From a virus (Duplodnaviria > Caudoviricetes): a DNA stretch of 45,394 bases. The stretch is from positions 1-45,394 of the IMG/VR virus record IMGVR_UViG_3300032315_000882, one strand, 5' to 3'. The number at the start of each line of letters is the position of its first letter. Within the stretch, counting starts at the first letter, position 1. Shown piece after piece: positions 514 to 45,271 of the stretch. Both the position numbers and the translations under genes were made by a program. The notes under the pieces were generated by a model. It was not told the DNA's origin, did not search any database, and was given only the letters and a program-made list of their open reading frames with translations.

Positions 514-555
514 TGTCTCTGTCCTTTTTGCTGTCGGCTTGTCCCGACGGGCTCT

Positions 556-587
556 CTCTCTATACCCGGCCCAGGCGTTGTACAAGC
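556..587 (-). promoter_or_regulatory. Leftward early sigma70-type promoter (GCTTGTAC-N17-TAGAGAG)
   Basis: Minus strand reads gcTTGTACaacgcctgggccgggtaTAGAGAg; same GCTTG-N20-TAGAGAG geometry as the rightward promoter. Confidence 0.6.
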
Positions 588-620
588 ATTTTCTCACATG
601 CATATTTTTCACAACCAAAC

Positions 621-652
621 GCTTGACACCCATTTCGGACAGGCCTAGAGAG
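621..652 (+). promoter_or_regulatory. Rightward early sigma70-type promoter (GCTTGACA-N17-TAGAGAG)
   Basis: Perfect TTGACA at 623-628, 17-nt spacer, TAGAGA at 646-651, upstream of the first + strand gene. Confidence 0.7.
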
Positions 653-696
653 GGTGGGCAGCCGGGACAAGCCGCTGCGACAGAAGGACAACAGCT

Positions 697-5016: not shown

Positions 5017-5024
5017 CAGGAGAA

Positions 5025-5049
5025 GGGGTGGTCCTCCCGGGCCACCCCC
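5025..5049 (+). other. GC-rich intergenic stem-loop without U-tract
   Basis: GGGGTGGTCC-tccc-GGGCCACCCC between the stop at 5016 and the RBS at 5059. Confidence 0.5.
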
Positions 5050-5072
5050 GATCTGCCAGAAGGACAAGAGAC

Positions 5073-5675: not shown

Positions 5676-8512
5676 CCACCTTTCACGGGGACACGGAGAC
5701 CTTCTGCGAAACGCCCCTCGCCCACGGCCTGCACCGCTACGCAGAGAAGGTCGAGATCACGGTCCTGGCCTGGGCTATTGACGAGGGCCCAGTCGAGGTC
5801 ATCGACTGCACCAGGCCCGGCTGGGAGGACAAGGTCAAGGTGGCGCTGGCCGCCGCCGACGCCGCCGACGAGCAGGTCTGGCAGAACTCTGCCTTCGACC
5901 GTACCGTCATGCGCCACGCATGGGGCTACGAGATGCCGGTCGAGAGGGTCGTGGACACGATGGTCCAGGCCCTCGCCCACGGCCTTCCCGGCTCCCTCGA
6001 CAAGCTCTGCTCGGTGCTGGGCGTGCCGACTGACCTTGCCAAGCACAAGGAGGGCAAGCAGCTGGTCCAGCTCTTCTGCAAGCCCAGGCCCGAGACCTCG
6101 AAGGTCAGGCGCGCGACGCGCGAGACCCACCCCCTCGAATGGCAGCGGTTCCTCGACTACGCGGGCTCCGACATCCTGGCGATGCGAGAGGTGCGCAAGC
6201 GTCTGCCTAAGTGGAACTACCCCGCGAACCAGCGCGAGCGCGACCTGTGGGTGCTCGACCAGAAGATCAACGACAGGGGCGTCGCCGTCGACCTGGCCCT
6301 GGCAGAGGCCGCCGTGCGCGCCACGGACCTGGCCAAGAAGGGGCTGAAGGCGAAGACGCAGGAGCTGACCGGCTTCGACCCGGAGACGGGTCAGGGGCTC
6401 GAGAGCACCACGCAGCGCGACGCCTTCCTGAAGTACCTGCTCGGTGAGTTCGACGTCGACCTGCCCGACATGCAGAAGGGCACGCTCGAGCGGCGACTGG
6501 CCGACGAGAACCTGCCGGAGCCCGTCAAAGACCTGCTCCGCATCAGGCTCATGGCCACGGTGTCGTCGACCGCCAAGTACAAGACGCTCCTGCGGGGGAC
6601 GTCGAGCGACGGGCGGCTGCGCGGGACGCTCCAGTTCTGTGGCGCTGCGCGCACCGGCCGCTGGGCTGGCCGCCTCTTCCAGCCCCAGAACCTGATGCGC
6701 CCGACGCTGAAGCAACAGGCCATCCTCGACGCCATCGAGGTCTTCCTCGCCGACTGCGCGGACCTGGTCTACGACAACGTCATGAACACGGCGGCGAACT
6801 GCACGCGCGGCGCGCTGACCGTCGGGCCCGGCAAGAAGATGGTGTCCTCCGACCTGGCCAACATCGAGGGCCGTTTCCTGGCATGGCTGGCGGGCGAAGA
6901 GTGGAAGCTCCAAGCCTTCCGCGCCTTCGACGCAGGCACCGGGCCCGACCTCTACTACGTCGGCGCGTCCGAGGTGCTGAACATACCCATCGACCAGGTC
7001 ACGGCCGACCAACGCCAGTCACACGGGAAAACACCGGAACTCGCGTGTCTTGGCCCTGATACCCAAGTGTTGACTAGCACCGGCGTGAAGCCTATTATCA
7101 CGGTTCTCGAAACAGATTTGCTATGGGACGGTGAAGAGTGGGTGAAGCACGACGGCCTTATCGACCGGGGCCAACGCCGGACAATCCTCGTGGAGGGGGT
7201 CGAGATGACCCGGGATCACCTGATCCAATGCGGAGACCTGTGGCGGAAAGCGGAACGGGTCGCCTCAAAGCGTATCTGCCGCGCCCTGTCGAGGGCCAGC
7301 GGTTCGGACAGCTTGTGGTCTCTGGCTTCGACCTTGGGCCTGCAGGAGGTCTTCGCGCGGTCAGGGTTCGCTGTGATTGCGGAGCGCCTGAACACCGCGT
7401 CCACATCAGCAACCTGCGCAACGGCTACTCGCGAAGCTGCCCCAAGTGCGCCATCAAAAAATCAGGAGCCAAGCGCAAAGAGTGGTTTCGTTACGCAGAC
7501 GTCGTGCCCGACGACGGTCATCGCCGGAGGCTATGCAACCGTATCGCGGCTTGTGTTAACCGCTGCCATAACCCCAACGATGCAGGCTGCAGGAACTACG
7601 GCGGCCGGGGCATCTTCGTCCACGCGCCTTGGCGCGCCGACCGCGCCGCGTTTCTCGCCTACCTGGTCACGCTTGACGGGTGGGATCAGCCAGCTCTGGA
7701 ACTGGACCGCGAGGACGTCAACAAGGGCTACGAGCCCGGCAACCTCCGCTTCATCACAAGACAAGAGAACTCGAAAAACAGACGTAAGGTCGGGGTTATG
7801 GAAGCCCGGATCGCGGAGCTTGAGGCCCGTCTACGATCTTGCAAATGCGGGACCGCGTAACCGCTTCACCGTGGTCAACGCGGCCGGGGAGGCTCTAGTT
7901 GTCCACAACTGCGGCTACCAGGGTGCGGTCGGCGCGTTCCAGGCGATGGCCCGCATCTACGGGCTGGAGATGTCCGACGCCCGGGCCCTCGAGATCGTGA
8001 AGGCCTGGCGCAAGAAGAACAAGCACATCGTCGAGCTATGGTACGAGACCGAGCGCGCCGCGATCCGCGCCGCAGAGCAGCCTGGCCTGCGGGTCGAGGC
8101 GGCCGGTGGCAAGCTCGTCTTCCAACGCGACGGCAGCTGGCTGCGCATGCGCCTGCCGTCTGGCCGTTGCCTCTGCTACCCCGGCGTCGCCGTCGAGGAG
8201 GGCAAGCTGACGTACATGGGCACGAACATGTACACCCGGAAATGGGAGCGGCTGCACACCTACGGCGGCAAGCTGATCGAGAACGCCACGCAGGGCGGGG
8301 CTCGCGACGTGCTGGCGCACAACATGGCCGAGGCCGAGGCGGCTGGGTTCGAGATCACACTCACGGTCCACGATGAGCTGGTCACGGAGACAATCGACAG
8401 CGGGCAGTTTACCGCGGAGCGTCTGTCTGCCATCATGTCAACCGTACCGCCCTGGGCGACGGGCCTCCCGCTCGCCGCCTCCGGGTGGGAAGGACAGAGG
8501 TATCGAAAATGA
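5672..8512 (+). CDS. polA: Family A DNA polymerase with 3'-5' exonuclease, interrupted by an intein (mature protein ~658 aa)
   Basis: ExoI DTET, NSAFDR, DYAGSD; GAARTGRWAG; motif A SDLANIEGR; motif B GKTPELA/CGYQG; motif C TVHDE. Confidence 0.95.
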   Translation: MTTFHGDTETFCETPLAHGLHRYAEKVEITVLAWAIDEGPVEVIDCTRPGWEDKVKVALAAADAADEQVWQNSAFDRTVMRHAWGYEMPVERVVDTMVQALAHGLPGSLDKLCSVLGVPTDLAKHKEGKQLVQLFCKPRPETSKVRRATRETHPLEWQRFLDYAGSDILAMREVRKRLPKWNYPANQRERDLWVLDQKINDRGVAVDLALAEAAVRATDLAKKGLKAKTQELTGFDPETGQGLESTTQRDAFLKYLLGEFDVDLPDMQKGTLERRLADENLPEPVKDLLRIRLMATVSSTAKYKTLLRGTSSDGRLRGTLQFCGAARTGRWAGRLFQPQNLMRPTLKQQAILDAIEVFLADCADLVYDNVMNTAANCTRGALTVGPGKKMVSSDLANIEGRFLAWLAGEEWKLQAFRAFDAGTGPDLYYVGASEVLNIPIDQVTADQRQSHGKTPELACLGPDTQVLTSTGVKPIITVLETDLLWDGEEWVKHDGLIDRGQRRTILVEGVEMTRDHLIQCGDLWRKAERVASKRICRALSRASGSDSLWSLASTLGLQEVFARSGFAVIAERLNTASTSATCATATREAAPSAPSKNQEPSAKSGFVTQTSCPTTVIAGGYATVSRLVLTAAITPTMQAAGTTAAGASSSTRLGAPTAPRFSPTWSRLTGGISQLWNWTARTSTRATSPATSASSQDKRTRKTDVRSGLWKPGSRSLRPVYDLANAGPRNRFTVVNAAGEALVVHNCGYQGAVGAFQAMARIYGLEMSDARALEIVKAWRKKNKHIVELWYETERAAIRAAEQPGLRVEAAGGKLVFQRDGSWLRMRLPSGRCLCYPGVAVEEGKLTYMGTNMYTRKWERLHTYGGKLIENATQGGARDVLAHNMAEAEAAGFEITLTVHDELVTETIDSGQFTAERLSAIMSTVPPWATGLPLAASGWEGQRYRK
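7046..7909 (+). mobile_element. Intein (288 aa) inserted in polymerase motif B
   Basis: Block A CLGPDTQV, block B MTRDH...WRKAE, block F PVYDLANAGPRNRF, block G VVHN followed by +1 Cys; removal restores GKTPELA-CGYQG. Confidence 0.93.
7228..7860 (+). CDS. HNH-type homing endonuclease encoded in an alternative frame inside the intein (start ATG 7228 or GTG 7240)
   Basis: GQRFGQLVV, CDCG, SCPKC, RCHNPN...NYGGRGI.V...W, LDREDVNKGYEPGNLRFITRQENSKN, typical of phage HNH/AP2-associated endonucleases; GC-rich third positions in this frame. Confidence 0.85.
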   Translation: MRRPVAESGTGRLKAYLPRPVEGQRFGQLVVSGFDLGPAGGLRAVRVRCDCGAPEHRVHISNLRNGYSRSCPKCAIKKSGAKRKEWFRYADVVPDDGHRRRLCNRIAACVNRCHNPNDAGCRNYGGRGIFVHAPWRADRAAFLAYLVTLDGWDQPALELDREDVNKGYEPGNLRFITRQENSKNRRKVGVMEARIAELEARLRSCKCGTA

Positions 8513-8826
8513 GAGAGAGCACGGTCGAAGCGCACCTGCGCAAGAAGGCGACAGCTGCTGGCGCTCTGGTCAGGAAGATGTTCTGGCCGGGGCACCGCGG
8601 TGCGCCGGATCGCTTGGTGGTCTGGTCCCCCGTCGCTCTCGGCTTTATGTCTAGCCGCGCCGACGGCGGGCCGCAGATCGACTTCGTCGAGCTGAAGGCC
8701 CCCGGCAAGAAGCCCGACCCGCACCAGGAGAGGGAGCACGCCCGCCTGCGCGGCGCGGGCTGCACAGTTTTGGTCCTCGACACCGTCGAGGCAGTCGACG
8801 ATTACATTGAGGAGAGGACACAGTGA
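8509..8826 (+). CDS. VRR-NUC domain nuclease (probable resolvase)
   Basis: RESTVE..L, GAPDR, FVELKAPG, Q.REH..L..AG..V.V. Confidence 0.9.
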   Translation: MRESTVEAHLRKKATAAGALVRKMFWPGHRGAPDRLVVWSPVALGFMSSRADGGPQIDFVELKAPGKKPDPHQEREHARLRGAGCTVLVLDTVEAVDDYIEERTQ

Positions 8827-9077: not shown

Positions 9078-10482
9078 GTACGTCCCCAGGCCCTGGCAAC
9101 CGGCCATGATCGACCACGCCTGCGAGGTCGTGCGCGCCGGTCAATGGGCGGGGATGGGCACGGGCAAGACCTCGGCCACATTGGCCGCCCTCGACCTGCT
9201 CCACCTCTGCGGCGAGGTCACGCGGCCCGCTCTGGTCATCGCACCCAAGAGGGTGGCCGAGCACACCTGGCCCGACGAGGTCAGGAAGTGGGACTTCTGC
9301 GCGGGGTGGCAGGTCGAGACGATCCTCGGCACACCTGCCGAACGGCTGGCAGCTCTCGGCCGTGCGCGCAAGGGCAGCTCGCCTCTCGCCACGATCAACT
9401 ACGAGAACCTGCCGTGGCTGCTCGAGAAGCTCGACGGCGACTGGCCCTTCGGCCTGGTCATCGCCGACGAAAGCACCAAGCTGAAGAGCTTCCGCGGCGG
9501 CTTCCGCACGCATGCGACCACCGGCAAGACCTACTACCAGGGGGGCGGCTCGACCAGGGCCAGGGCCCTGGGCCGCGTCGCGCACCGCACACCGCGCTGG
9601 ATCAACCTGACGGGCACGCCGTCGCCGAACGGGCTGCAAGACCTCTGGGGGCAGGGCTGGTTCCTCGACGCTGGCCAGCGTCTGGGCCGTACCTTCGAGA
9701 GCTTCAAGGAGCGGTGGTTCCAGAAGTCCTTCGACGGCTTCAGCATCGACCCCCTCCCCTTCGCGCAGGAGCAGATCGAGACGGCGCTCCGCGACATCTG
9801 CCTGACCACCGAGGTGCCGGTCGAGAAGCCCCTGTTCAACGAGATCAGGGTCGAGCTGCCCGACAAGGCCCGGGCCCAGTACCGCGAGATGGAACGCAAG
9901 ATGTGGACCGAGATCAAGGCGGTCGGCATCGAGGCGGTCAACGCCGCCGCCCGATCCGGCAAGTGCCTGCAGATAGCCAATGGAGCAGTCTATGACAACG
10001 AAGAGAACAAGGCCTGGCACGAAGTCCACGGAGCCAAACTGGACGCCTTGGAAAGTGTGGTCGAAGAGGCTGCCGGAGCACCAGTCCTCGTCGCCTATAA
10101 CTTCCGACACGACCTCGAGCGATTGCAGCGAGCCTTCCCCCATGCCATCGACCTCAGCACGTCGGCGGGCCTTCGAGCTGCAAAGGCTGGGGTTGGACGG
10201 GTCTGGCTTGCCCACCCCGCGAGCCTCGGGCACGGAGTAGACGGGCTGCAGGAGCACTGCAACATCGTCGCCTTCTTCGGGCTAGATTGGAACCTTGAGA
10301 CCCACGACCAGATCATCGAGCGCGTGGGGCCCATGCGCCAACAGCAGGCGGGCAAGAAGCGCCCCGTCTACGTCCACTACATCCTGGCCACCGGCACCGT
10401 GGATGAACTCGTACTAGACCGGCTTACCAACAAGAGGAGCGTCCAGCAGATCATGCTCGACGCCATGAAAAGGCAACCTTGA
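9067..10482 (+). CDS. SNF2-family (superfamily 2) helicase
   Basis: MGTGKT, IAPKRVA..TW, INYE, DEST, LTGTP, HG.DGLQ, QIIERV motifs. Confidence 0.92.
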   Translation: MSREYVPRPWQPAMIDHACEVVRAGQWAGMGTGKTSATLAALDLLHLCGEVTRPALVIAPKRVAEHTWPDEVRKWDFCAGWQVETILGTPAERLAALGRARKGSSPLATINYENLPWLLEKLDGDWPFGLVIADESTKLKSFRGGFRTHATTGKTYYQGGGSTRARALGRVAHRTPRWINLTGTPSPNGLQDLWGQGWFLDAGQRLGRTFESFKERWFQKSFDGFSIDPLPFAQEQIETALRDICLTTEVPVEKPLFNEIRVELPDKARAQYREMERKMWTEIKAVGIEAVNAAARSGKCLQIANGAVYDNEENKAWHEVHGAKLDALESVVEEAAGAPVLVAYNFRHDLERLQRAFPHAIDLSTSAGLRAAKAGVGRVWLAHPASLGHGVDGLQEHCNIVAFFGLDWNLETHDQIIERVGPMRQQQAGKKRPVYVHYILATGTVDELVLDRLTNKRSVQQIMLDAMKRQP

Positions 10483-10511
10483 TCTAGCGCCAAATTGTGT
10501 TAGGTTAGCTG

Positions 10512-10634
10512 TTGGCCTCACAGCCTCCCGGGAGACGGGGCTGTGGGATGAGTGACAAGGCCCTTCGCGGAGCCAGTCACGACCAAAGCTCCGGCCGCTG
10601 GTTACTTGTCCTTCCCAGCGGCCGGAGCTTTTTG
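10512..10634 (+). ncRNA. Candidate structured small RNA (three hairpins, ending in an intrinsic terminator)
   Basis: Upstream TTGATC (10479-84) and TGt-TAGGTT (10498-10506); hairpins at 10517-10547, 10552-10580 and 10585-10631; no ORF. Confidence 0.45.
10585..10634 (+). terminator. Rho-independent terminator at the convergence of the two arms (possibly bidirectional)
   Basis: 17-bp perfect stem AAAGCTCCGGCCGCTGG/CCAGCGGCCGGAGCTTT with a TTTTT run at its 3' end. Confidence 0.85.
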
Positions 10635-15539: not shown

Positions 15540-18500
15540 TCACTGCGTCTTGCTGCCGGGCGACGGTGCGCCGGTGATCGCCCCGCGCACCACGTCCACC
15601 GGGCCCGTCGGTTCGACGTCCTCGTTGACCACATCGGCGGCGTAGCCGAGGGGCTTGGCGAGGGGCAACAGCGGGAGCCCCGATACCAGGCCCAACAGGG
15701 TCAGCACGTTGCGGACGTCGGCACGGTTGAACTTCTCGCCGTTGACGACGCTGTCGTAGACCGATGCGGGGGCGAGCAGGCCCCCTTCAACCACGGACAA
15801 CACCGGCGACACGGAGAGGCGGTCGTCGAAGCGGGCCTCCGTAAAGCCGCCGAGGGCGACATTGGCCAGGGGCCCAGCGATGGGGATCGACGAGAGGCCG
15901 AGCTTGAGCTGGCTCCCGAAGAACCAGTTCAGGGCCTCGTCCAGGTAGCCGTCCTCCTCATCGTCATCCCAACCACCGCGCATCAAATCCGCGATGGCTT
16001 GGCCCACGAGGGCCTGGGCGGCGAAGCCCATCAGGTAGACGTAGAAGAGACGGCCCTTGCCCTTGCCCACACCGACGCCCCGCGCCACGATCTGCGTTTC
16101 CGTGGCGTTGAGGTTGGCCAGCATGTTGGCCCAGCCGCCGAACTGCGTGAACATCCGCACGAAGGGGGAGCCGGTCTCGAGACGGGCGACGTCTTCCGGG
16201 TTCCACGACCCCTGCGTTTCGCGCAGGACGCTGTCGGCAAAGCGGACGGCGTCGGCGGTCGACTGCCCCTCTGACGTCGCCTGGTCGAAGGCGGCGGTCC
16301 AGATGATCGGGTCCATGACGTTCTGCACGGCGGACTGCATGAAATAGCCGTGGCGGATGGCCCACTGGCGGGCAGAGCCCAGGGCCGTGGGGTCCAGGTC
16401 GATGATCTCGTTGATGTTCTGGCGCGTCTCCATGATCTGGTTGTCCATGCGGACAGCCAGCGCCGTCGACAGGTTCGTCGCGGCGGTGGTGACCTCGGCG
16501 GGGTTGCGCATGAAGCGCCAGTGGGCCTGCCCAAGACGGGAGGGCTTGACGCGCACAGCCGCCGCGAAGGGACCGCCCACGACCTGCTGCGCCGTGTTGA
16601 TCACGTTGGCGAACATCAGCTGCATGCCCACCGTCCCGCGCAGGTAGCGGGCGGTTCTATCGACCCACTTGCCGCCGTTCCCGATGCCCTGCGCTTCCAC
16701 CGTCTGCTTGGCGGCGCGCTGCAGCCAAGGCAGGAGAAGGTCGGTCTGCGCCGTCGGGTCGAAGGCCTTGAGCCTGGCGGCCAGTTTCCTGTTCTTCAAC
16801 AGGCGCATGGCTTGGCGGACGGCGGGGCCGAGGTGCGTGAACTTCACGACCTTGTCGATGTGGGCTGGCAGCAGGCCCAGCTCCAGAGAGAGGGGCTGGG
16901 TGTAGTTTTCTTCGCGGCCCTTGGTGAAGCCGTTGCCCGTCGAGGGGAACATCTGCGAGGCAGAGTTGCTCTCGAGGCCGTCTTCGCCCTGCCGCAGCAT
17001 GGCGTCCTGCACGAAGTAGCTCTCGGTGAGGGCGGGGACGTAGCCGCCGCGCAGCGTGCCGAAGGGCGTGACGACAGGGTCGGCGGTGATCTCGTTGAAG
17101 TACCGGCCGTACATGACGTGGTGAGCGCGCTGCGCTCCCGGCTTCGTCTCTTCGAGCAAGTCCCAGACGCTCTGGACGAAGGCCCAGTCGCGCTCGGTGA
17201 TGACGCCTTCCCGGTGCATGCGATCCATGAAGGCCTGCCACTGGGTGTCGTCGAGGGTGCCGTCCTCGTTCTTCTTGCCCCACTTGTAGCCGAGCAGGAG
17301 CTTGGTCTTGTTGGAGAGGTTCCCCGTGTGGAGCATGGCGTGGTAGAGGACGGCCTTGCTCTTGAAGACGAAGTTGATCTCGGGGGCGGCGATGTCGCGG
17401 GGCTTCATCTCGTCGCGCACCGTCTCCATCAGCTCGTTCAGGCGGCGCATGTAGGCGGCGCTGTCCCGGCGGTAGCGGTCGGAGGCCTCGGAGATGGGGT
17501 TCCAGATGTAGCGGGTGAAGGGCCCCTGCACCCGCACGTCGACGCCGCGGGCCCAGCTCTCGACGCGGCGCAGCATGGCCCTCACGCCGAGTATCTCGTG
17601 ACCCAGGCGGTCGCTCCTCGTTGGCGTGGTTTCGGGGGCGGACAGATCGGCGTCGGGCTGGATTTCGTCCATCTGTGCGTTCAGCTCGCCGACCACACTC
17701 TCGATGCTGCGCTGCTGACCGTCGATCTCGATGAGCTTGGACTGGCGGGATTGCTGCCAGAGCTGGCGGACGGCGTCACGAATGGCGACGTACTCGCCGT
17801 AGGGCAGCTCGTTGAGGGGGCGCTCAGGGTTGACCAGGTCTCCGAAGACGGAGGACAGGTCGGCGTAGAGTTCGGGGTCGTAGGTCTGCACCGCCTGGAT
17901 GTAGCCAGACACGTCGTTCTTGACGCGGCCGATGCCGTACTTCGACAGGATCGCGCGGGCGGCGTTGACCAGGTCCATGTTGCGGCTGCGGGCGAGGGTC
18001 GCGTCCTTCGCCGTCACGATCCGCGCGAAGAGGCGCAGGTCTTTCTCGACCTCCTTGCGGGCGGCAGCCACGGCCCTGCCGGTGTGCAGGTTGATGAGCT
18101 GGGTGCGCTTGGCCGTTGCCACGCCGACACCGTCGCCCTTGGCGGCGGCCTTGCGAGCCGCCCGCGAGGCCCTGATCTGCGCAGAGATATACTGCGCAGG
18201 CTTCAGGTTCTTGAGGGTCAGGCGTGCGACGACACGGTCGGCGATGGCCTTGGCGGCTTCTGCCAGCAGCGACTTCTTGCCGACGGCCTTGGCGGCGTAG
18301 GCCTCCTCTGCTGCGACGAACTTGACGCGCGCTTCGTTGGCGACCGCCTCGTTGGCCGCCTTCTCGAGGGACTGGGGATCGGAAAGATCGCCGTGCCGCT
18401 CGAGCATGCGCTGGTCGGTGAGGCCCTTGATCTTCTCGGAGGCGACCTCGCCGTTGACAAGGTCTTCGATGAGGGCTTGGCCGCTCGGGTAGCCGAACCA

Positions 18501-21500
18501 GCCAGCGACGATGTCGGGGTGGAGGCCGTCTGTGCCGACCTCCCCATACTTCCCGCCGCGGCGCAGTTTGGTCCAGAGCGGACCTTCGGGCGCAGCGGCG
18601 AACTGGCCGAGGGGCCCCGTCGGGCGCGCGGGCTCATCGCCGTAGAGCGCCTTGAGGGTGGCCAGGTCCAGCTTGCCTGCGCCTTCGACTGGCTCGCCCT
18701 TCTCGTCCAGGCCGCGGCGCAGGAAGGCGCGGGCGCGGTTGACGGGCTCGGCCATGACTTCGGCGGTGACCTCGGCGCGGATCGCCTTGCGCAGTTCCTC
18801 GGCCTCATCTTGCAGCTGCCGCAGGGCACGGGACTTGGCACCCGACGCCCACTTCAGGTCGCGCACCGAACGGCGCTCGAGCTGTTCGACGGCCTCCTCT
18901 GTGGCGTCTCGACCGAGGGCTTGCAGGCGTGCCCACTCATCCTCGGTCATGGCTTCGGGCTTCTCGTCGTAGAGAGCGGAGAGGGCCCAGACCTGGTGCG
19001 CTTCTTCGATCTCCGCTTCCGATGCGAGCATCCGGTCCATGACGCCGCGGACGTCGTCCGTCAGTTCGACGTTCAGGGCGGTCAGCGACTTGTAGACGCT
19101 CTTCAACCAGGAGGAGAAGGTGCGGAAGAGGCTTCTCATCTCGGTGCTCGGTGCCTTCCCCTCGAAGAGGTAGGCCTCGAAGCCACGGGCGAAGCGTTCG
19201 TGGTAGGGGGTCTTCTCCTCGAGCGTCATGCCCGCCCACTTCTCGAGCGTCATGTCGGGGGCGAACCAGCGCATCAGGATGTTGGCGTCGGCGACCGAGA
19301 CGGCGTCGGCGTCGGGCATGTTTGCCAGGTGAAGGGTCGCCTCAAGGAAGAAGTGGCCCGTCTCGTGCAGGAAGGTGGAGAGGTCGGCCGTGCGCAGCAG
19401 GCTGATGACCGAGGGGGTCTGGCTGATGTCCCTGCCGAAGGCGATCTGGCCGCGGTTCTGCTGGAACATGGCGAAGCCAGACATGGCGGCGTCGCGCAGC
19501 TCGGGCGTGATCGTGAAGCCGTTCTGGATGCCGAGGGACGTGGCAGGGCGGGCCAGCTCGGTTTCGTTCGCGGCGATGTAGCTGTCGAGCCTCTCCTGGG
19601 CGCGCCCGGCGGCGTAACTGTCGCCGTCGATCAGTTGCGCGTCTGCAAGGGCCTCACGACGTACTCGTTCGCCCGCGGCGCGGTCTTTAGCGATCTGCGA
19701 GTTCTCGTCCCGCATATCCACCGGCCCGACCTTCGTGCCGAACTTCTTCAGCAGGTCGTTGGTCACGTTGACCAGGTTGCGCTCGTAGAAGAAGGAGCCG
19801 TCGCCGCCGGTCTGGCCGCCGTTCTGCTGGTTGCCGTTGATCCAGGCGATCTGCTCGAAGCCGTTGTCGACGGCGTAGCGGATCATCCGCTTCATGAGCA
19901 GGGCGTCCCAGCTCTTCTTCCAAGGAGCATCGGGGATGCCAGACGGGTCTTGGGCGTTGCGAAGGTCTTGGCGCAGCTCAGTTGCGCGCAAGTTCAAGAC
20001 ACTGAAGCCGCTGACCGCCTCCTCGACGGCGGGCGTGCGAACCAAAGCCAAAGACCCCTGGTTCAATATCCTAAAGGGGTCGATGCCTCGGCCCAGCTGC
20101 TGGCTGGCCTCTTCAAGCGCGTTAAGCATCCCTTCGATGCTTTCAAGCACTGATCCACCTGCAGCTTCTGCTTCAGGCAAAACAGCGTTCAGCTCGATGA
20201 TGCGCTCTTCGACCAGCGCGTCTACGGCGGCGGACACACGTTCGCGCGCGGCGTTCAACTCGCGGACGGCGGTGTCTTCGGCTTCGCGCAGTTCTTTTAC
20301 CCGCGCTTCGTCAACTGTCTGCTGATACCCCTCATCCCGCCCCTTCTGGTGCCAGTCGCTCTGCAGCTCTTCGATGAACAGCACGCGCTTGCCCGCCGCG
20401 TCCTCGCGGCCGGTGATGCGCGCGTGGGCGACGACGTTCTGCTTGTCCCAGTGCGTCGAGGGGCCTTCCACGTCGGGAAGGCTCAGGAGGATTTCGCGGT
20501 AGGTGTCGTCCGCACCGGGGAGCTTGTAGTCAGAAAACTGGGAACCTTGTGCGTCCAGCGCGGTTTCGGCCTCGGCGTAGCTCCCGTACGAAGCGCGAGC
20601 GTTGCCTTCAAGGTCTGTGATTTCGTACTCGGTTTCGCCGTCCTCGCCCTCGTACTCCTGTATGCGCAGGTCGCCGGTCAGCACAGTCTCTTCCAGCTGC
20701 ACGCCGTTGGCGCGCACGAAGCCGAGCACTGCGTCCTTGGTGATGTTGCCCTTGGCGTCGACCTGGCTCGAGGCAGCTTTGAACTCCTCGGTCTGGTTAG
20801 CCAGCCCGTCGAGGTAGTCCTGCAGCCCCGTGATCTCGATCTCTTCCTTCTTCACGCCGGGCGTCTTGGAGAGCGTCGCCATCCACTGCGCCGCTGGCGC
20901 TTTAGTCAGCGGGCTGTCAGCCACAGCGCGTTCGAGCGCCGAGTAGAAGGGGTCGGCCTGGTAGAGGATGTTGGTCTCGTTGGGGTCGAAGAAGCCGCGG
21001 TTGAGGGTGGACTTGATCTGGGTCGGCTGGACCGGGATGAAGAGGTCTTCGGTGTATTCGAGGTCGAAGAAGTCGCGAACGATCACACCGTCGTTGCCCG
21101 CCGCCACGGCCTCGGCCACGATCTCTTCCAGCAGGTCGCGGGGCAGCATGCCGTCGTCGGACTGCTCTTCCGTGAGCCGGTCCTCGAGCTGCTGCTGCGT
21201 GATCTCCAACGGGTTCTGGATCGACAGGTAGACGGGCATGGTCGAGCCAGCGCCGCGCGCGAAGAAGCTCGCGTGCTCTGCATTGGGCGTGAACATGTTG
21301 AGAACGCCGTCGCCCCGGAACGAGTTAAAATCGTAGGGCGTGCCGTGGTAGACGACCAGCGGATCACCGGCCTCGTTCTTGACGACGCTGTTACCGAACC
21401 AGGTCTTGAAGGCGGGCGTGCCGACGGCAGGCATCTGGGGGCCGCCCTGTCGCCAGTTCGGTATGTCCAACTGGAACAGAGCGCCCGTGCCCGGGATTTC

Positions 21501-24500
21501 GGTGAAGTAGTCCTCGGGCCTGGTGTCGTATTGCGTTATGCCCACGGCCACGTCGATGTGGCCGTCCTGGTAGATCACCCCTTTGTGGGTGAGGACGCTG
21601 TGCTGGTTGTACCTGTCGCCCAGTTCACGGGCCTGCTTCTCGGTGATACCGACGACGGTGAAGCCCGGCTCGATCTGGCCGTAGCGGCCGACCGAAGGTT
21701 GGAAGTCATAGCCAGCAGCTTCGAGGTCGGCGGCCAGCTTGGCGTTCGCCGCTTCGTTCTGCGCCGCCGATGCGTTTTGGCCCTGCGGGTTGGCAGCCGT
21801 CAGGATGGCCCAGTCGTCCTTCTCGAGGATCGAGCCGATGTTCTCCGGGGAGAAGTAGGCGTCTACGGTGCGGGGGGCGGGGCCTTGGTTGAAGACGCCG
21901 CCATCCGCCGGGAAAGCGCGATTAGCCGGGACACGGCCTCCATCTCCGTCATCGGGGTCGATGCCTTTGGATCGGAGGAGCTTGGCTGCTCCGCTTGAGT
22001 TGGTGCCTTCATTTGTCCGTATCCCTTGCGCGGCCCAGAGCCGCTTTTCAAAAAACCACAGCAGAGCCTGAACGTCGCCCGTCGGAAGATCGAACTCCTC
22101 CACCAGGTCGCTTGTCAAACGGACAATCGCCCTCCGGTCAACGCCGTCATCCTTTTCACTAGGCTGCGCCACGATGCCGGTCTTCGGGTCGATGGGGCCC
22201 TCAAACAGGCGGCCAGTGTGGCGGCGATAGGTGCGAATGTACCACAGATCGACGGTCACGTCTTCAGGGTCGATGTCGTAGCCTTGGAGCCCCATCGTGT
22301 AGGGGCCGAGCTTCAGGCCGAAGACGAGGTAGCCGGGCTTGTCTGGCCCCGCGATCTCGGCCTTGGTCGTGTAGCGCCCAGCCTTGTATATGCCGCTGTC
22401 GAGCATCGCCGCGTTGATGTCGGTGCGCGACTGCGGCGTGATGAACCAGTCCATCGCCGCCTGAAGGCTCCCCTCGCGCTCGACGAGGTGTGCCACGATG
22501 GCGAGCATCTTGTTGTTGTCGGGGTTGCGAGGCCCCCAACCCTTGGGCTGGGTGACCATCTCCCCTGTCTTGTTGGACTTGAAGGTGGTCATCTGCACCG
22601 GGAGACCACGGGCGATCCACGCTGCCTCGCGGCTAGACGGGATGACGCCAGTGGCGAGGTAGGCCTCGTATGCCTCGGACGCCAACATGAAGGCTTGGTC
22701 TGGGTCCAGGCCACTGGAGAAGAACCCGGCGAAGGTCAGGTACAGCGAGCGGTGGGAGGGTTCCGTCAGGAGCTTCGGGTAGACCCGGCCCGCCATCTCG
22801 ATGGCCTTCTGCACGTCGGCAGAGTACCAGCCCACACCAGAGTTCGGCTGCAAGAGTTGCGCCCTGACCTCGGCGATGAAGGCGTCGCGGACGCGGGCGT
22901 AGTCGGCCTCGTCGTTCTCGGGGTAGAGCTTGCGCCCCTCCGTCGCCATGTGGTGATCGGTCAGCGCCTTGGCGACGGCGTTGATCGTGAGCTTGCCTTC
23001 GACCGGCAGGGGGTTGTCGAGGAGCGGCACGCCCGTCTGGGCGTAGCTCGAGCCGAACAGCTCGGAGAGGGCCTGTTCGCGGAAGTCTTCGGGGGGACGG
23101 GTCGCGACGCTCTCTTCGGGATCGGTGCGCGCGGCGAGCCGCGCCAGGCGATCCTGTTGTGCCAGCTCGCGCATGCGCGCGGCAAGCCGCTGTGCGTCTT
23201 GCGCGGTGCGGACGGGCCCCATCGGCTCCATGTCGACGGCGTCGAACATGGCCACAGCGCCGGGGATCATGGCGTCGCTGCGGTAGCCGCTAAAGCCTGC
23301 GGCCTGGATTGCCTTCTCGTAGGCGGTGGCGATCTCCATCGCCGTGCCCTCGGTGGGCTTCAGGCCCTGCGGGTCAGCGTCAAAGTCGTAGAGCTTTGAG
23401 GCGGGGACGCGGGCCTGGTAGCGGAACGACCTGCCACTGATACCAGTTTCCGGTTCGCCGTTGTAGACGCCTCGCACCCCGAAATAGGTGCGGCCCGGCG
23501 CGCCTGCATTGCGGCGCTCCCGTTCGCCTTGCGGCGTCACGCCTGCGGAACCCCAACGAGAGGGGTCCGAGGTCATGATCCCCGGCATGCTGCTGAAGTG
23601 GATCAGGTCGACGGTCTCTTCCTGGGCGAGCGTGTTGTCTTGGTTCGTGCCGGGCAGCTCTGCGTTGAACTCCAGCGGCAGAAGCTCTGCCATCTGCTCT
23701 GCCGACATACCGCGGCGAGCGCCGAGGGTGGAGTAGAAGTTGGCGACAATCGCCCCGTAGCGTTGGTTGACGTCGGAAGTGAAGCGGCCGGTGGCGTTGA
23801 GCTTCGCCGCGATCTGGCCCGCGACGACGTCGCGCGAGGCCATCGCCGCCTCGGTCTCTGCCGACCGCTCGAAGGCCTTGGAGAAGTCCTGTTGGATCGT
23901 CTCGTCGAGGTTGGCCAGCTGCTCCTTGGCGTCGGCGCGGCTCATCCCCAGGGGGTCCGTGCGCAGGTGGTCGAGGAGGGTGGCGTTGGCCTGCGTACCG
24001 GCGACGTGGGCGGTGTACTCGCCGACCGTCATGCGGATGTCGGAAGCGCCGGAGCGGATTTGCTCGGCGACGTGGGGCACGGCGGCGGCGAGGGCGTCGA
24101 GGTCGAGGTCGGTTTCGTTGGCCGACTGGAAGAGGGTCTCGCTGGCGATGTAGATGTCGGTCACGTCGCCGTCTTCGGCGGCCATGTCGACGAACTGCTG
24201 GAAGGTCTGCGCTTCACGGGCGTTGAGCTTGGAGGCAGCAGCCAGGATGCCGAGCTGCTCGACCATGCGAGCGCCGCTCTCGGCCCTCTGGCTTTGCGCT
24301 TCTGCTCTTGCGCCGCGGTTCAGCTGGTCTTCGATAGTGGCGGTAACACCGCGCACCGTCGCACCGAAGGGGCCGCCGATCACAGCGCCTTGCGCCGCCC
24401 GGTCAAGAGCTGTTACCGGGTCAAAGCCCGCCTCCGTACCGACGGTAGCACCGGCGTATTCGATGACGCTTTGCGCCGTTTCCGTCCCCAGCTCGACCAC

Positions 24501-25532
24501 ACCGGCTCGCCCCGACGCCCCCGCGACAGCGCGAAGACCGCCGCCGACAAGTTCGTCGCTGATGCCGAGCATGCCGCGACCGCTGAGTTTGTCCAGGTAG
24601 GAAGACGCCACGGCGGCAGGCAAGGCGGCCACGAGGTCACCTACGGTCGTGATTTCCCGCCCGTCGTTCTCAGCGCGTTGGCCCCCGATGTCGCCTGTTT
24701 GGGAAGCAACATAGAACGGCGTGGCGAAAACCGCGGCGATCATGTCGGGGAGCGAAGCGATGCCTTCCTCGAGTATAAAAGGTATCGCGCGCTCGACAGG
24801 GCGTTGTTTGAACTCTTCCCAGGTTGTGCCTTGGGGGACGGGGTTCACGTCGTCCAATGCGTTAGCCAAACGCAGACCGCGCGCGTATGTCTCGGGGGTG
24901 CTGCGCACGATAGAGATCGCGCCGGTGGTTTCGTCACGCACGGCGTCGAACGAAGGGATGCCAGCGCGGTCAAGTTGCCGTCGAACGAACGGCTCGACGC
25001 CACCCATTGTTGTCTCGGCCGTGCCCGCAAAGTTTGTGACAATCTGCCCCGAGCGTTCGCCCAGGCGCGATATAAGACGCTCAATGCCGGAACCGAAACC
25101 TCCGTTCGGGGCAGGCTGCATCGGGCCCGAGAAGGCGTTGGGGCCGTACTCTGCGAGGATGCGTGCCTGGCGGCCCGGGTCCGCCGGGGCGGCGGGCGCG
25201 CGTAACGCCTCGCCCCCTGCCAGCAAGCTCTCCATGTCCTGCAGCGTCACGATGTCGTCTTGTGCCAGGCCCGCGTTGACGGGGTTGGACAGGAACTCGC
25301 TCGTTCGCGGCGACGCGGCAGGCAGCTCCGACCAGTTCGGCGGCGGCAGCGGCACGCTTGCCGTCCGCGCTGCCCGGTAAGCGGCCAAGGACATACCTCG
25401 TGCCCGCGCCTCGGCGCGGTCGCGCGCGAGACTGTCGGGCACTTCCACCACACCCATACGCAAAGAAGCCTCCAGCTGGCGGCGGCGTTCCTCGGCAGCG
25501 GCGTCTTGCGGTGTCATGTTGGCAGGTGGCAT
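15540..25532 (-). CDS. Giant (3330 aa) internal virion/ejection polyvalent protein
   Basis: Position after the ejection proteins. ART-PolyVal-like motif (FKTWFGNS...VVYHGT...VYLSIQNP...DGVI...QIKS), HExxH (FLHETGH...HERFARGFEAYLFEGKAP) and other modules. Confidence 0.85.
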   Translation of the reverse strand: MPPANMTPQDAAAEERRRQLEASLRMGVVEVPDSLARDRAEARARGMSLAAYRAARTASVPLPPPNWSELPAASPRTSEFLSNPVNAGLAQDDIVTLQDMESLLAGGEALRAPAAPADPGRQARILAEYGPNAFSGPMQPAPNGGFGSGIERLISRLGERSGQIVTNFAGTAETTMGGVEPFVRRQLDRAGIPSFDAVRDETTGAISIVRSTPETYARGLRLANALDDVNPVPQGTTWEEFKQRPVERAIPFILEEGIASLPDMIAAVFATPFYVASQTGDIGGQRAENDGREITTVGDLVAALPAAVASSYLDKLSGRGMLGISDELVGGGLRAVAGASGRAGVVELGTETAQSVIEYAGATVGTEAGFDPVTALDRAAQGAVIGGPFGATVRGVTATIEDQLNRGARAEAQSQRAESGARMVEQLGILAAASKLNAREAQTFQQFVDMAAEDGDVTDIYIASETLFQSANETDLDLDALAAAVPHVAEQIRSGASDIRMTVGEYTAHVAGTQANATLLDHLRTDPLGMSRADAKEQLANLDETIQQDFSKAFERSAETEAAMASRDVVAGQIAAKLNATGRFTSDVNQRYGAIVANFYSTLGARRGMSAEQMAELLPLEFNAELPGTNQDNTLAQEETVDLIHFSSMPGIMTSDPSRWGSAGVTPQGERERRNAGAPGRTYFGVRGVYNGEPETGISGRSFRYQARVPASKLYDFDADPQGLKPTEGTAMEIATAYEKAIQAAGFSGYRSDAMIPGAVAMFDAVDMEPMGPVRTAQDAQRLAARMRELAQQDRLARLAARTDPEESVATRPPEDFREQALSELFGSSYAQTGVPLLDNPLPVEGKLTINAVAKALTDHHMATEGRKLYPENDEADYARVRDAFIAEVRAQLLQPNSGVGWYSADVQKAIEMAGRVYPKLLTEPSHRSLYLTFAGFFSSGLDPDQAFMLASEAYEAYLATGVIPSSREAAWIARGLPVQMTTFKSNKTGEMVTQPKGWGPRNPDNNKMLAIVAHLVEREGSLQAAMDWFITPQSRTDINAAMLDSGIYKAGRYTTKAEIAGPDKPGYLVFGLKLGPYTMGLQGYDIDPEDVTVDLWYIRTYRRHTGRLFEGPIDPKTGIVAQPSEKDDGVDRRAIVRLTSDLVEEFDLPTGDVQALLWFFEKRLWAAQGIRTNEGTNSSGAAKLLRSKGIDPDDGDGGRVPANRAFPADGGVFNQGPAPRTVDAYFSPENIGSILEKDDWAILTAANPQGQNASAAQNEAANAKLAADLEAAGYDFQPSVGRYGQIEPGFTVVGITEKQARELGDRYNQHSVLTHKGVIYQDGHIDVAVGITQYDTRPEDYFTEIPGTGALFQLDIPNWRQGGPQMPAVGTPAFKTWFGNSVVKNEAGDPLVVYHGTPYDFNSFRGDGVLNMFTPNAEHASFFARGAGSTMPVYLSIQNPLEITQQQLEDRLTEEQSDDGMLPRDLLEEIVAEAVAAGNDGVIVRDFFDLEYTEDLFIPVQPTQIKSTLNRGFFDPNETNILYQADPFYSALERAVADSPLTKAPAAQWMATLSKTPGVKKEEIEITGLQDYLDGLANQTEEFKAASSQVDAKGNITKDAVLGFVRANGVQLEETVLTGDLRIQEYEGEDGETEYEITDLEGNARASYGSYAEAETALDAQGSQFSDYKLPGADDTYREILLSLPDVEGPSTHWDKQNVVAHARITGREDAAGKRVLFIEELQSDWHQKGRDEGYQQTVDEARVKELREAEDTAVRELNAARERVSAAVDALVEERIIELNAVLPEAEAAGGSVLESIEGMLNALEEASQQLGRGIDPFRILNQGSLALVRTPAVEEAVSGFSVLNLRATELRQDLRNAQDPSGIPDAPWKKSWDALLMKRMIRYAVDNGFEQIAWINGNQQNGGQTGGDGSFFYERNLVNVTNDLLKKFGTKVGPVDMRDENSQIAKDRAAGERVRREALADAQLIDGDSYAAGRAQERLDSYIAANETELARPATSLGIQNGFTITPELRDAAMSGFAMFQQNRGQIAFGRDISQTPSVISLLRTADLSTFLHETGHFFLEATLHLANMPDADAVSVADANILMRWFAPDMTLEKWAGMTLEEKTPYHERFARGFEAYLFEGKAPSTEMRSLFRTFSSWLKSVYKSLTALNVELTDDVRGVMDRMLASEAEIEEAHQVWALSALYDEKPEAMTEDEWARLQALGRDATEEAVEQLERRSVRDLKWASGAKSRALRQLQDEAEELRKAIRAEVTAEVMAEPVNRARAFLRRGLDEKGEPVEGAGKLDLATLKALYGDEPARPTGPLGQFAAAPEGPLWTKLRRGGKYGEVGTDGLHPDIVAGWFGYPSGQALIEDLVNGEVASEKIKGLTDQRMLERHGDLSDPQSLEKAANEAVANEARVKFVAAEEAYAAKAVGKKSLLAEAAKAIADRVVARLTLKNLKPAQYISAQIRASRAARKAAAKGDGVGVATAKRTQLINLHTGRAVAAARKEVEKDLRLFARIVTAKDATLARSRNMDLVNAARAILSKYGIGRVKNDVSGYIQAVQTYDPELYADLSSVFGDLVNPERPLNELPYGEYVAIRDAVRQLWQQSRQSKLIEIDGQQRSIESVVGELNAQMDEIQPDADLSAPETTPTRSDRLGHEILGVRAMLRRVESWARGVDVRVQGPFTRYIWNPISEASDRYRRDSAAYMRRLNELMETVRDEMKPRDIAAPEINFVFKSKAVLYHAMLHTGNLSNKTKLLLGYKWGKKNEDGTLDDTQWQAFMDRMHREGVITERDWAFVQSVWDLLEETKPGAQRAHHVMYGRYFNEITADPVVTPFGTLRGGYVPALTESYFVQDAMLRQGEDGLESNSASQMFPSTGNGFTKGREENYTQPLSLELGLLPAHIDKVVKFTHLGPAVRQAMRLLKNRKLAARLKAFDPTAQTDLLLPWLQRAAKQTVEAQGIGNGGKWVDRTARYLRGTVGMQLMFANVINTAQQVVGGPFAAAVRVKPSRLGQAHWRFMRNPAEVTTAATNLSTALAVRMDNQIMETRQNINEIIDLDPTALGSARQWAIRHGYFMQSAVQNVMDPIIWTAAFDQATSEGQSTADAVRFADSVLRETQGSWNPEDVARLETGSPFVRMFTQFGGWANMLANLNATETQIVARGVGVGKGKGRLFYVYLMGFAAQALVGQAIADLMRGGWDDDEEDGYLDEALNWFFGSQLKLGLSSIPIAGPLANVALGGFTEARFDDRLSVSPVLSVVEGGLLAPASVYDSVVNGEKFNRADVRNVLTLLGLVSGLPLLPLAKPLGYAADVVNEDVEPTGPVDVVRGAITGAPSPGSKTQ

Positions 25533-33331: not shown

Positions 33332-33344
33332 GGTAGTTCTCCAG

Positions 33345-34305: not shown

Positions 34306-34338
34306 AACCTACGTCGCGCGCGTAAGGGAAGACATACC
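34306..34338 (-). promoter_or_regulatory. Late promoter motif; probably yields a leaderless mRNA
   Basis: GGTATGTCT-N18-TAGGTT, then 6 nt to the ATG at 34299. Confidence 0.7.
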
Positions 34339-35511
34339 GCGCTCGAGCCGGGCCAGCGAGCAGGTGTGCTTTTCGACCTCGCCGTCCAGGCGGTGGTAGG
34401 TCTCCGCATCCATCGACCGCACCGACCGATAGCCGCTTGCGTGGCTCCAGATGTCGGGGGCGGCGAGGGTGCGTTTGTATTTGACCGTCACGCCCGGGTA
34501 GTCCTTCTCGTCGCCGTGGTGGACGTGGCCGACGTACCAGACGCGGGAGCCGTGCTGTGAGGCTTGCCACAGGTCGGGCACGTCGACGGCCATCAGCAGG
34601 GGGAGGTCTTTGCCCTTCGCCCCGTCGCCGTGGGTGGTGCCAATCAGGTTGGTGCCGAAGCCCATGAACCAGTAGGGGTTCGGGCTGGTGACGACCGTGA
34701 CCCTGGGCTCGTTCTCGTAGAGCAGCGCCAGCATCTCGGCCAGCATGATCGCGGTGATGCCGTCGTGGTTGCCGGGGTTGATCCGCACGGTGAGGTAGAG
34801 GTGCTTCTCGAGCATGCGGGCGATGTGGTGGCGCTTGCAGCGGATGCTGGCGCGGACGACCTCTGCGTGGCGGCCGTGCGTGTCGAGATGGTGGCCGCTC
34901 TTGGTGCGGCTCGCGTTGTTGTCGGCGTGGAGGCTGTCGCCCAGATCGATGTAGAGGGCGTAGGTCGAAGAGGGCGTAGAGGCGACCAGCCTGTCGATGG
35001 CCGCCTTGGTGATGCGCTCGAACTCGACCAGGTCGAAGGTCTGTCCCGTCTCTTCCTTCCAAGAGTAGAGGCCAGCGTGCGGATCGCCCTGTGGGTAGAC
35101 CGTCAGCAGATCGTCGTCGGTGTGTGCGGGTGGGGCGAGGGGTTTGAGTGGTTCCAGTCCCTCAAGTAGCGCCGCCTTGATAGCCAGCAGCCTTTCGGCC
35201 TGCGCCTCGGCGTCGGGCGACTGACGCTCCCACACCCGCTCGACGCCGTTGGGGCCGCGCTGGACTGTGACCTTGCCCATGCGGTAGCCGGGGGCGACGC
35301 CCTCGTTGAAGTGGCCCGGCGCGTGGCCACGGCGGGCGGCCTCTTTCTGGTAGCGGTCAGCTGCTTCCTGAACGGCTGACTTCCCCAAGCCCAGCGCCTC
35401 GGCGGCTTTGCGGATGCTGCCGTGCTTTTGGACCGCCTCAGCGGCCCGCCACTGGGTGTCTGTGGCCCAATCAGGTTTGCAGTCGTCGGGAGGAACAAAC
35501 ATCAAGGCCAT
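34309..35511 (-). CDS. HTH plus calcineurin-like metallophosphoesterase
   Basis: GSIRKAAEALGLGKSAV (HTH); GDPH, LGDSLH, PGNHD, HGD, GHVHH. Confidence 0.8.
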   Translation of the reverse strand: MALMFVPPDDCKPDWATDTQWRAAEAVQKHGSIRKAAEALGLGKSAVQEAADRYQKEAARRGHAPGHFNEGVAPGYRMGKVTVQRGPNGVERVWERQSPDAEAQAERLLAIKAALLEGLEPLKPLAPPAHTDDDLLTVYPQGDPHAGLYSWKEETGQTFDLVEFERITKAAIDRLVASTPSSTYALYIDLGDSLHADNNASRTKSGHHLDTHGRHAEVVRASIRCKRHHIARMLEKHLYLTVRINPGNHDGITAIMLAEMLALLYENEPRVTVVTSPNPYWFMGFGTNLIGTTHGDGAKGKDLPLLMAVDVPDLWQASQHGSRVWYVGHVHHGDEKDYPGVTVKYKRTLAAPDIWSHASGYRSVRSMDAETYHRLDGEVEKHTCSLARLERGMSSLTRAT

Positions 35512-45030: not shown

Positions 45031-45255
45031 CTATCCCAGCACCTTCTCTGGGTTGACCAGGTTCGCGGCGGGCACGCCGAGCCGCTCGTGGATGGCCTGG
45101 GCGTGGCGCACGGGCATCCAGCGGGCACCATTCAGCCAGCCGCTGACGGCCTGCTGCGAGACGCCGAGGAGGGCCGCCAGCTTCACCTGACCACCGGCCA
45201 GGGCGATGGCCTGTGCGATGTGCTTTCGCACGGAGGGGGTAGATCGTTTTCTCAT
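45031..45255 (-). CDS. Cro/YdaS-like HTH regulator
   Basis: AIALAGGQVKLAALLGVSQQAVSGWL; ATG 45255 with AGGA RBS. Confidence 0.85.
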   Translation of the reverse strand: MRKRSTPSVRKHIAQAIALAGGQVKLAALLGVSQQAVSGWLNGARWMPVRHAQAIHERLGVPAANLVNPEKVLG

Positions 45256-45271
45256 TGTCCTGCCCATCCCT

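Follow-up and report, generated by a model that had tools for sequence, protein, structure and literature searches.

What is the function of the gap at positions 10479 to 10634 of IMG/VR virus record IMGVR_UViG_3300032315_000882? The record is a tailed-phage genome of 45,394 nucleotides (nt), which was analysed over its whole length and is referred to here as the window. Its rightward and leftward gene arms converge at this gap, and an account made from the letters of the window alone (the sequence-only reading) had proposed that the gap encodes a small RNA whose terminal loop is antisense to the translation-start regions of several early genes. The proposal of a plus-strand, trans-acting RNA whose loop would pair with several early start regions is well supported by comparison with related phages, and we assign a probability of about 0.65 to the interpretation that this is an antisense RNA which blocks early translation.

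The element and its conservation

The element begins with a predicted sigma70-type promoter on the plus strand (10479-10506), composed of a TTGATC box (10479-10484), a 16-nt spacer and an extended -10 box, TG-n-TAGGTT (10498-10506). The predicted small RNA downstream of it would be about 121 nt long (10514-10634, plus strand, both ends being estimates) and would contain three hairpins on the same strand: hairpin 1 (10517-10547), hairpin 2 (10552-10580) and hairpin 3 (10585-10633). The last of these is terminator-like, with a 17-bp stem followed by a U-tract, and displays a 13-nt loop, UUACUUGUCCUUC (10602-10614, plus strand), which we term the seed loop. The hairpins and the open loop fold in the way that the sequence-only reading had claimed: the folding energy of the predicted RNA is -68.3 kcal/mol (z = -5.0 against 300 dinucleotide shuffles), and the cost of opening the seed loop is 0.13 kcal/mol, compared with a median of 12 for other 13-mers of the RNA.

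The element is present in 17 of the 17 viral loci whose helicase is 78-96% identical to that of the window (other loci are designated below by L numbers), and the alignment comprises 14 distinct sequences, the window included. Both partners have changed at ten of the 28 pairs, and pairing holds in 94% of the cells, as against about 44% when the partners are slid; on four of five measures none of 500 shuffles reaches this degree of covariation, although 45 of 500 do so on the fifth. Changes on both sides are seen at 3/12 pairs of hairpin 1, which also contains an invariant U-G pair, at 2/4 modelled pairs of hairpin 2, where the sequence is highly variable and the fold is kept (per-sequence folds), and at 5/12 modelled pairs of hairpin 3. 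While the stems change, 12 of the 13 bases of the seed loop are invariant in all 14 sequences, the last base being U in one lineage (L011). Covariation and loop conservation had both been named by the sequence-only reading as properties to look for in related phages. Within the promoter no change is seen (14/14) in TTGATCT, GTG, TA or the final T of the -10 box, while the spacer varies. Relatives carry a GapR-like gene directly upstream of the element; the window is without it, and its junction lies right at TTGATC, so that the stop codon of the helicase gene now overlaps the -35 box (10470-10484).

Several features point to the plus strand as the one transcribed. The invariant promoter boxes are on this strand, with no conserved open reading frame downstream of them. 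The G-U pairs of hairpin 1 number 18 on the plus strand, versus four that would be G-U on the minus strand, and the plus-strand tail contains more T residues than the minus-strand tail in 12 of the 14 sequences and the same number in the other two. The consensus energy is -41.8 for the plus strand and -30.1 for the minus strand, the former value including a helix inside the promoter.

The gap had been described as free of open reading frames. It does hold an ATG frame of 30 codons, but this frame is not conserved: an ATG follows hairpin 1 in 13 of the 14 sequences, but just seven share an intact frame across the loop. A small peptide was rejected on these grounds, and the element is consequently considered to be non-coding. 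No Rfam family was matched at its gathering score, and matches to sar, CcsR1 and miRNA entries were discarded as far below threshold.

A covariance model derived from the alignment (R1) identified no homologue in 93 distant loci, none in 18 loci with a bare loop match (chance matches that have no stem) and none in 76 further loci, among which the best score was 22.7 bits with the loop hairpin missing. Since the model finds nothing convincing in these three sets, the family appears to be confined to the clade, a set of phages with no cultured member, as far as sampled. When all loci longer than 9 kb were scanned for other large-loop hairpins that match their own gene starts, nothing comparable was encountered outside the clade. 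Caulobacter phage Jess A has the same layout but no element, and possesses a plain hairpin with a 7-nt loop in a 49-nt gap at the same spot. Judged by these sequence comparisons, the element is a real, clade-restricted structured element.

Loop complements at the starts of early genes

In the window the hexamer AGGACA, which is complementary to the seed loop, occurs within -30 to +25 of 7/19 early starts and 0/29 late starts (p = 7e-4). It is the best-ranked of all hexamers for this contrast between early and late genes, and random coding-strand windows contain it in only 1-3% of cases, which bears out the enrichment that the sequence-only reading had presumed. Gene starts were chosen by hand in the window and with a simple caller in relatives. 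When the letters of the loop are shuffled, seven of 20 early starts are reached in 328 of 20000 trials. Four relatives show the same distribution, the tag preceding 13/76 early and 1/76 late predicted starts (p = 0.001, hand tally). Moreover, AGGA is continued by CA in 31 of 97 distinct leaders of the clade versus 13 of 254 in 56 GC-rich phage loci bearing GapR, and because this continuation is clade-specific, the tag is not simply the generic Shine-Dalgarno (SD) sequence of such phages. This de-duplicated tally is the one relied on; an earlier one (106/330 versus 16/332) contains duplicate contigs, and the truncated clade loci L004, L006 and L027 were taken out of its outgroup. Jess A has no enriched leader hexamer. 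Several late genes of the window instead possess GGAGAAC leaders, as the sequence-only reading had noted; these were found at 33336, 32309 and 37416.

The consensus of the tag is (G/A)AAGGACA(A/G). Among 45 site strings, which include one spurious in-gene match and have the AGG core fixed by the search pattern, 93%, 87% and 60% match the loop at the three positions 3' of AGGA and 38% at the next, and because the match falls off in this way the working seed is 8-10 nt. The tags keep constant positions, following each early promoter, the SSB block, the polymerase gene and the VRR-NUC gene, while the genes behind them are often unrelated; some of these positions lose the tag in some phages. A role as DNA operator was rejected because the tags lack symmetry, invariably face in the sense direction and occupy the SD position on each of the two divergent arms.

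Pairing energies were calculated for 49 starts with a home-made, seed-based model that takes account of opening costs, rather than with IntaRNA. With accessibility counted, the five best of the 49 starts and seven of the best nine are those of early genes bound by the seed loop. The sites listed in the sequence-only reading were recovered at their positions. The best target of the 49 (-13.0 kcal/mol) is GAAGGACAAG (5059-5068, plus strand), located before gene 5073 (genes without a name are designated by their start), and this site reads RAAGGACAAG in 11 of the 11 loci that were matched at that position. The end of the polymerase gene contains TGGGAAGGACA (8486-8496, plus strand; -8.6 kcal/mol), which includes GAAGGACA at 8489 and precedes the VRR-NUC start at 8509; GAAGGACA is kept in 10 of 12 loci and lost in L008 and L085. 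AGGACA (8815-8820, plus strand) is found before the GcrA-like gene 8823, in a position that is kept before different genes but has lost the tag in L013 and L172. On the minus strand AGGACAA (45255-45261) lies at the start of the Cro-like gene (-5.1 kcal/mol) and is also seen in L003 and L005. A further possible target, GAAGGACAA (45010-45018, minus strand), coincides with codons 4-7 of the primase gene exactly where it had been placed, but is confounded by the protein sequence K-D-N; because this is kept at the protein level in relatives, the site does not constitute independent evidence and is given little weight. The exonuclease, SSB, polymerase and helicase genes of the window have no tag at their own starts.

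A new observation is that a hairpin with a GACAAG loop stands at the start of each of the two divergent early leaders, and that a second tag then lies over the SD. The predicted rightward early promoter, read from the sequence as TTGACA-N17-TAGAGA (623-651, plus strand), is at the same position in 8/8 control regions compared. Its leader (659-696, plus strand) contains the GACAAG-loop hairpin with site GGACAAG at 665-671, followed by GAAGGACAA (683-691) over the SD of gene 697. The leftward early promoter was predicted in the same manner as TTGTAC-N17-TAGAGA (557-585, minus strand), and in its leader (514-548, minus strand) a GTCGG-GACAAG-CCGAC hairpin with site GGACAAG at 538-544 is followed by AAGGACA (520-526) before gene 513. 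The site at 538-544 was absent from the sequence-only reading; like that at 665-671, it forms a hairpin loop. In left leaders the hairpin-loop site is present in 5/8 and AAGGAC at the SD position in 8/8, and the GACAAG loop is kept in three different stems (the rightward and leftward leaders of the window and the rightward leader of L175).

Some further observations concern the tagged genes and their leaders. Gene 697 (697-1035) has a weak match to S-adenosylmethionine lyase (E 4e-5, below the cut-off), and its homologue heads the leftward arm in L013 and L172, where the tag is still there. Gene 5073 gave no usable match in the ESM Atlas. Just upstream of its tag a conserved hairpin (5024-5047) carries CTCCCGGG, the letters found at the top of hairpin 1. 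A box, ACAACCAAACGCTTGA, overlaps the rightward -35 in the window (610-628) and likewise in L003 and L008, and the control region of L175 has two copies of it (3198 and 3236); it is possibly an operator for the Cro-like protein. The rightward leader at 683-696 is a recombinant joined within AAGGACAA: on the left it matches the leader that comes first in L005, on the right that of gene 697, and the event deletes the small gene or genes between the two parts. As the exchange took place between two AAGGACAA sites, the tags double as recombination points. In L012 the element is directly followed by an insert (8225-8380) that combines a separate TTGACA box and a GAAGGACAG tag with the two-codon frame ATG-AAC-TAG and a strong hairpin; it possibly represents a sponge RNA or the remnant of a deleted gene.

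A proposed mechanism and its rivals

If the element specifies an antisense RNA of the kind proposed, its plus-strand promoter would give a transcript of about 120 nt, and the seed loop would pair with AAGGACA(AG) tags over the SD and exclude the 30S subunit. The GACAAG hairpin loops of the two leaders may provide a loop-loop first contact of 6-7 bp. Many early genes lie in chains of overlapping or abutting frames, which run from gene 697 through the exonuclease gene, from gene 5073 through the polymerase, VRR-NUC and GcrA-like genes to the helicase gene, and from gene 513 through gene 313 and cro to the primase gene; of the four chain heads only SSB is untagged. Because tagged genes head these chains, repression would spread from them through translational coupling or polarity and so reach polymerase, helicase and primase. 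The trans-acting, multi-target silencing that had been put forward earlier therefore has comparative support as far as pairing is concerned, but the replication genes would for the most part be affected only indirectly, through overlapping frames. Transcription from a promoter served by the host polymerase, together with read-through from the early operon, would allow a stable RNA to build up and cap early expression, giving a timer or brake that follows infection time or genome copy number. More speculatively, a late transcript that ends beside hairpin 3 on the opposite strand could titrate the RNA.

The sequence-only reading had also considered a repressor-free control of dormancy, for which we obtained no positive support. 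Neither a tyrosine integrase or resolvase nor an S24 repressor domain or ParA was found in five of five clade records, three of which are at least 90% complete. Among GTDB genomes a scan with the polymerase alignment gave no match and a scan with the helicase gave only relatives of 55% or less, and hence no close prophage. Because lysogeny genes and a close prophage are both missing from these collections, we favour a lytic timer or brake over a dormancy switch; a carrier state is possible.

A number of observations weigh against an antisense RNA of this type. The predicted duplexes are short (7-10 bp), and five of the seven have energies of -5 to -8 kcal/mol after opening costs in the home-made model. 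Half of the seed is an ordinary SD core, as the sequence-only reading had cautioned, and with the anti-SD core TCCTT held fixed 1594 of 20000 shuffles (8%) do as well in the window genome; for this reason the case from the single genome is only suggestive, and the weight comes from the relatives. One late-strand gene, and only one, carries the tag, an accessory gene behind the tail spike in the relative G003 (L249 19308). The invariant 5' UUA of the loop is matched by just 0-24% of the targets among the 45 site strings, a feature for which the proposed pairing does not account. The aligned sequences are related to each other and not independent, and the loop is so nearly invariant that change in seed and target could be compared at one variant only: this sole variant (C to U, L011/L175) goes with AAAGG at 4/6 sites, but the C-loop phages L013 and L172 also have AAAGG. 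As regards the strand, folding of single sequences favours the plus strand in only 8 of 14 cases, and hairpin 3 exhibits no strand bias in G-U wobble (4 versus 5). Other points are either adverse or neutral. The -35 box overlaps the end of the GapR-like gene in relatives and is partly coding there, the U-tail is weak (3-4 T in 8) in L007, L010 and L099, and a consensus scanner lists neither the promoter nor the terminator of the element, so that these two parts of the earlier proposal rest on their conservation across relatives.

The rival that survives best supposes that AAGGACAAG/GACAAG is the site of an RNA-binding protein, either a translational repressor or an N/boxB-like antiterminator acting at the leader hairpins, and that the hairpin of the element, carried on the minus strand by the late transcript at its 3' end, serves as a decoy. 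The hexaloop hairpins with which both divergent leaders open do resemble protein operators, and the last stop of the late operon (10637) is 5 nt from the stem, so that late RNA would carry the loop GAAGGACAAGUAA; furthermore, gene 5073 and other conserved early proteins are without known function. A decoy had been the alternative offered by the sequence-only reading. We disfavour it as unlikely, since it leaves unexplained the conserved plus-strand promoter, the U-tail and the G-U bias. In addition, the insert of L012, with its strong hairpin, separates the late operon from the element; the site appears in structural contexts as unlike as a 6-nt loop, an open SD and a 13-nt loop; and no RNA-binding protein was identified.

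Alternatively, the RNA may be real but directed mainly at host mRNAs with AAGGACAAG-like SDs, damping host translation as an anti-SD mimic, with the phage tags being secondary. The 3' end of the loop, UCCUUC, is similar to the 16S anti-SD, and the unmatched UUA could serve other targets. The early leaders of the phage itself are, however, strongly enriched for the loop complement, which selection would be expected to remove if the RNA were aimed at the host, and this explanation is very unlikely, even though phage small RNAs that act on host mRNAs exist (PreS and VpdS; PMC12197685).

An even slimmer chance attaches to the proposal that the tag is a strong clade-specific ribosome-binding site (RBS) which also serves as a gene-swapping junction, and that the element is a bidirectional terminator whose match to the tag arose by descent or chance. 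The position of the element where two arms converge, the AAGGACAA recombinant with tags as exchange points and the 8% chance level with the SD core fixed are all in keeping with such an origin, but a terminator has no need of an invariant 13-nt loop, two covarying upstream hairpins and a promoter, and the hairpin of Jess A at the same spot is a plain one with a 7-nt loop. Finally, the RNA might pair with the tags and promote expression, by protecting mRNA or as an orthogonal anti-SD adaptor, in accordance with the distance of 12-14 nt between tags and starts, which places the tags at the binding position of the 16S tail, and with the high output that early genes need; this is the least likely of the rivals, as pairing over the SD is established normally to exclude the 30S subunit, c4 and SviR working in this way, and no adaptor mechanism is known.

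Relation to known systems and genome setting

Known phage antisense RNAs mostly control one operon. The c4 RNA of P1/P7 is a processed RNA of 77 nt that acts on one operon, that of the antirepressor, with which it is co-transcribed, beside a protein repressor (PMC12197685, PMC8546580). Like c4, the element is phage-encoded and would act in trans through complementarity, computed in the present case, that is displayed in a loop and directed to the RBS region of the phage's own mRNA. Unlike c4, one seed loop here faces seven scattered starts in two divergent operons; there is no antirepressor among the PHROG and Pfam matches and no cI, the targets are 2-10 kb away, and Rfam C4 is not among the 14 matches up to E 10. 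The CI RNA of P4 is cut from the leader that it controls, between seqA and seqC, and causes premature transcription termination in the integrated lysogen (PMC4825925). Common to both is an RNA, instead of a protein, that restrains (in our case, would restrain) the phage's own replication genes, as well as the presence of two sites in a leader. In contrast to CI, the element has its own predicted promoter and is situated 10 kb away at the convergence of the arms, in neither early leader; its sites cover SDs, and an integrated-lysogen role is not indicated, no tyrosine integrase or resolvase having been found in 5/5 records.

The SviR RNA, encoded by PLE satellites of Vibrio cholerae, carries two seeds and acts on the helper phage as well (bioRxiv 10.1101/2022.04.08.487710). 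It resembles the element in its multiple targets, in pairing near 5' untranslated regions, in blocking the RBS and in the persistence of its targets across variable accessory loci; it differs in that the element has one seed, involves no satellite and would be an autonomous phage's own brake on its early genes. The cuckoo RNA family (CcsR1, RF02791) shares with the element C/U-rich open loops on stable hairpins and the same, alphaproteobacterial, class of host, but its repeated CCUCCUCCC loops are absent here, and the Rfam score is 13.4 against a cut-off of 65.3. The element thus lacks features that define c4, CI and the cuckoo family, while having the conserved structure and conserved single-stranded seed that are general to trans-encoded small RNAs.

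Of the published patterns, the start-associated sequence (SAS) of cluster K mycobacteriophages comes nearest; it is a 13-bp sequence, GGGATAGGAGCCC, which is present in 11-19 copies in these temperate phages and is paired with 17-bp inverted repeats (PMC3203893, PMC12699233). In three genomes one copy lies on the other strand, and either an RNA or a protein has been suggested as partner, the function being left open (PMC3203893, PMC12699233); that function was still listed as unverified in 2025 (PMC12699233). As with the tag described here, SAS is an extended SD upstream of many non-structural genes, stands before different gene families and has a reverse copy elsewhere. The tag does not conform to the GGGATAGGAGCCC consensus, and its opposite-strand copy lies in a covarying RNA structure behind a conserved promoter, whereas the available portions of the SAS papers describe no partner RNA.

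In the literature searched, which left most subscription journals and supplements outside, we found no description of an RNA with which a phage represses a class of early genes of its own via a shared RBS tag; a table of 38 uncharacterised phage small RNAs could bear on this question of precedent (PMC12197685). A single RNA addressing the whole class of early genes in this manner would represent a distinct means of timing infection that needs no protein repressor, and would offer a concrete, testable answer to the purpose of extended-SD tags such as SAS. A broader scenario starts from BPP-1, which has cI beside cro and xis/integrase after the helicase gene. It is conceivable, but doubtful, that the clade exchanged a BPP-1-like cI and integrase for a purely RNA-based regulon, in which one RNA would read RBS tags at the heads of coupled early operons, new early genes would come under control via an inherited tagged leader, and the RNA at high levels would make cells immune to superinfection or maintain a carrier state without a repressor, while being titrated by the convergent late transcript. 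If true, such a regulon would supply a clear case of the partner so far lacking for SAS-type tags.

The window is a circular phage record, complete and with a terminal overlap of 123 bp; its G+C content is 65%, and in gene set and order it corresponds to the BPP-1/APSE-like podoviruses. Its rightward arm encodes small genes, exonuclease, SSB, DNA polymerase A with an inserted endonuclease, VRR-NUC, a GcrA-like helix-turn-helix (HTH) protein and SNF2 helicase, and its leftward arm two small genes, the Cro-like protein and primase, with the terminase and virion genes beyond them. A blastn search against 50,697 phage records returned chance matches of 31 nt only. Because the GapR-like gene of the relatives has its best cultured-phage matches in Brevundimonas phages (about 80%), the host is likely to be a member of the Caulobacteraceae. 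Jess A-like phages have been placed outside Rauchvirus, in passages that make no mention of RNAs of this kind (PMC11053796). Four wastewater sequencing runs, examined as contigs, contain relatives only. The endonuclease-containing insertion in the DNA polymerase gene (7049-7910) is absent in most relatives. Elsewhere in the window, a 3330-aa protein of the virion module (15540-25532) contains LPD22, DUF3293 and ART-PolyVal domains, and the head module includes a gene that combines HTH and DNA-repair-exonuclease-like sequences (34309-35511).

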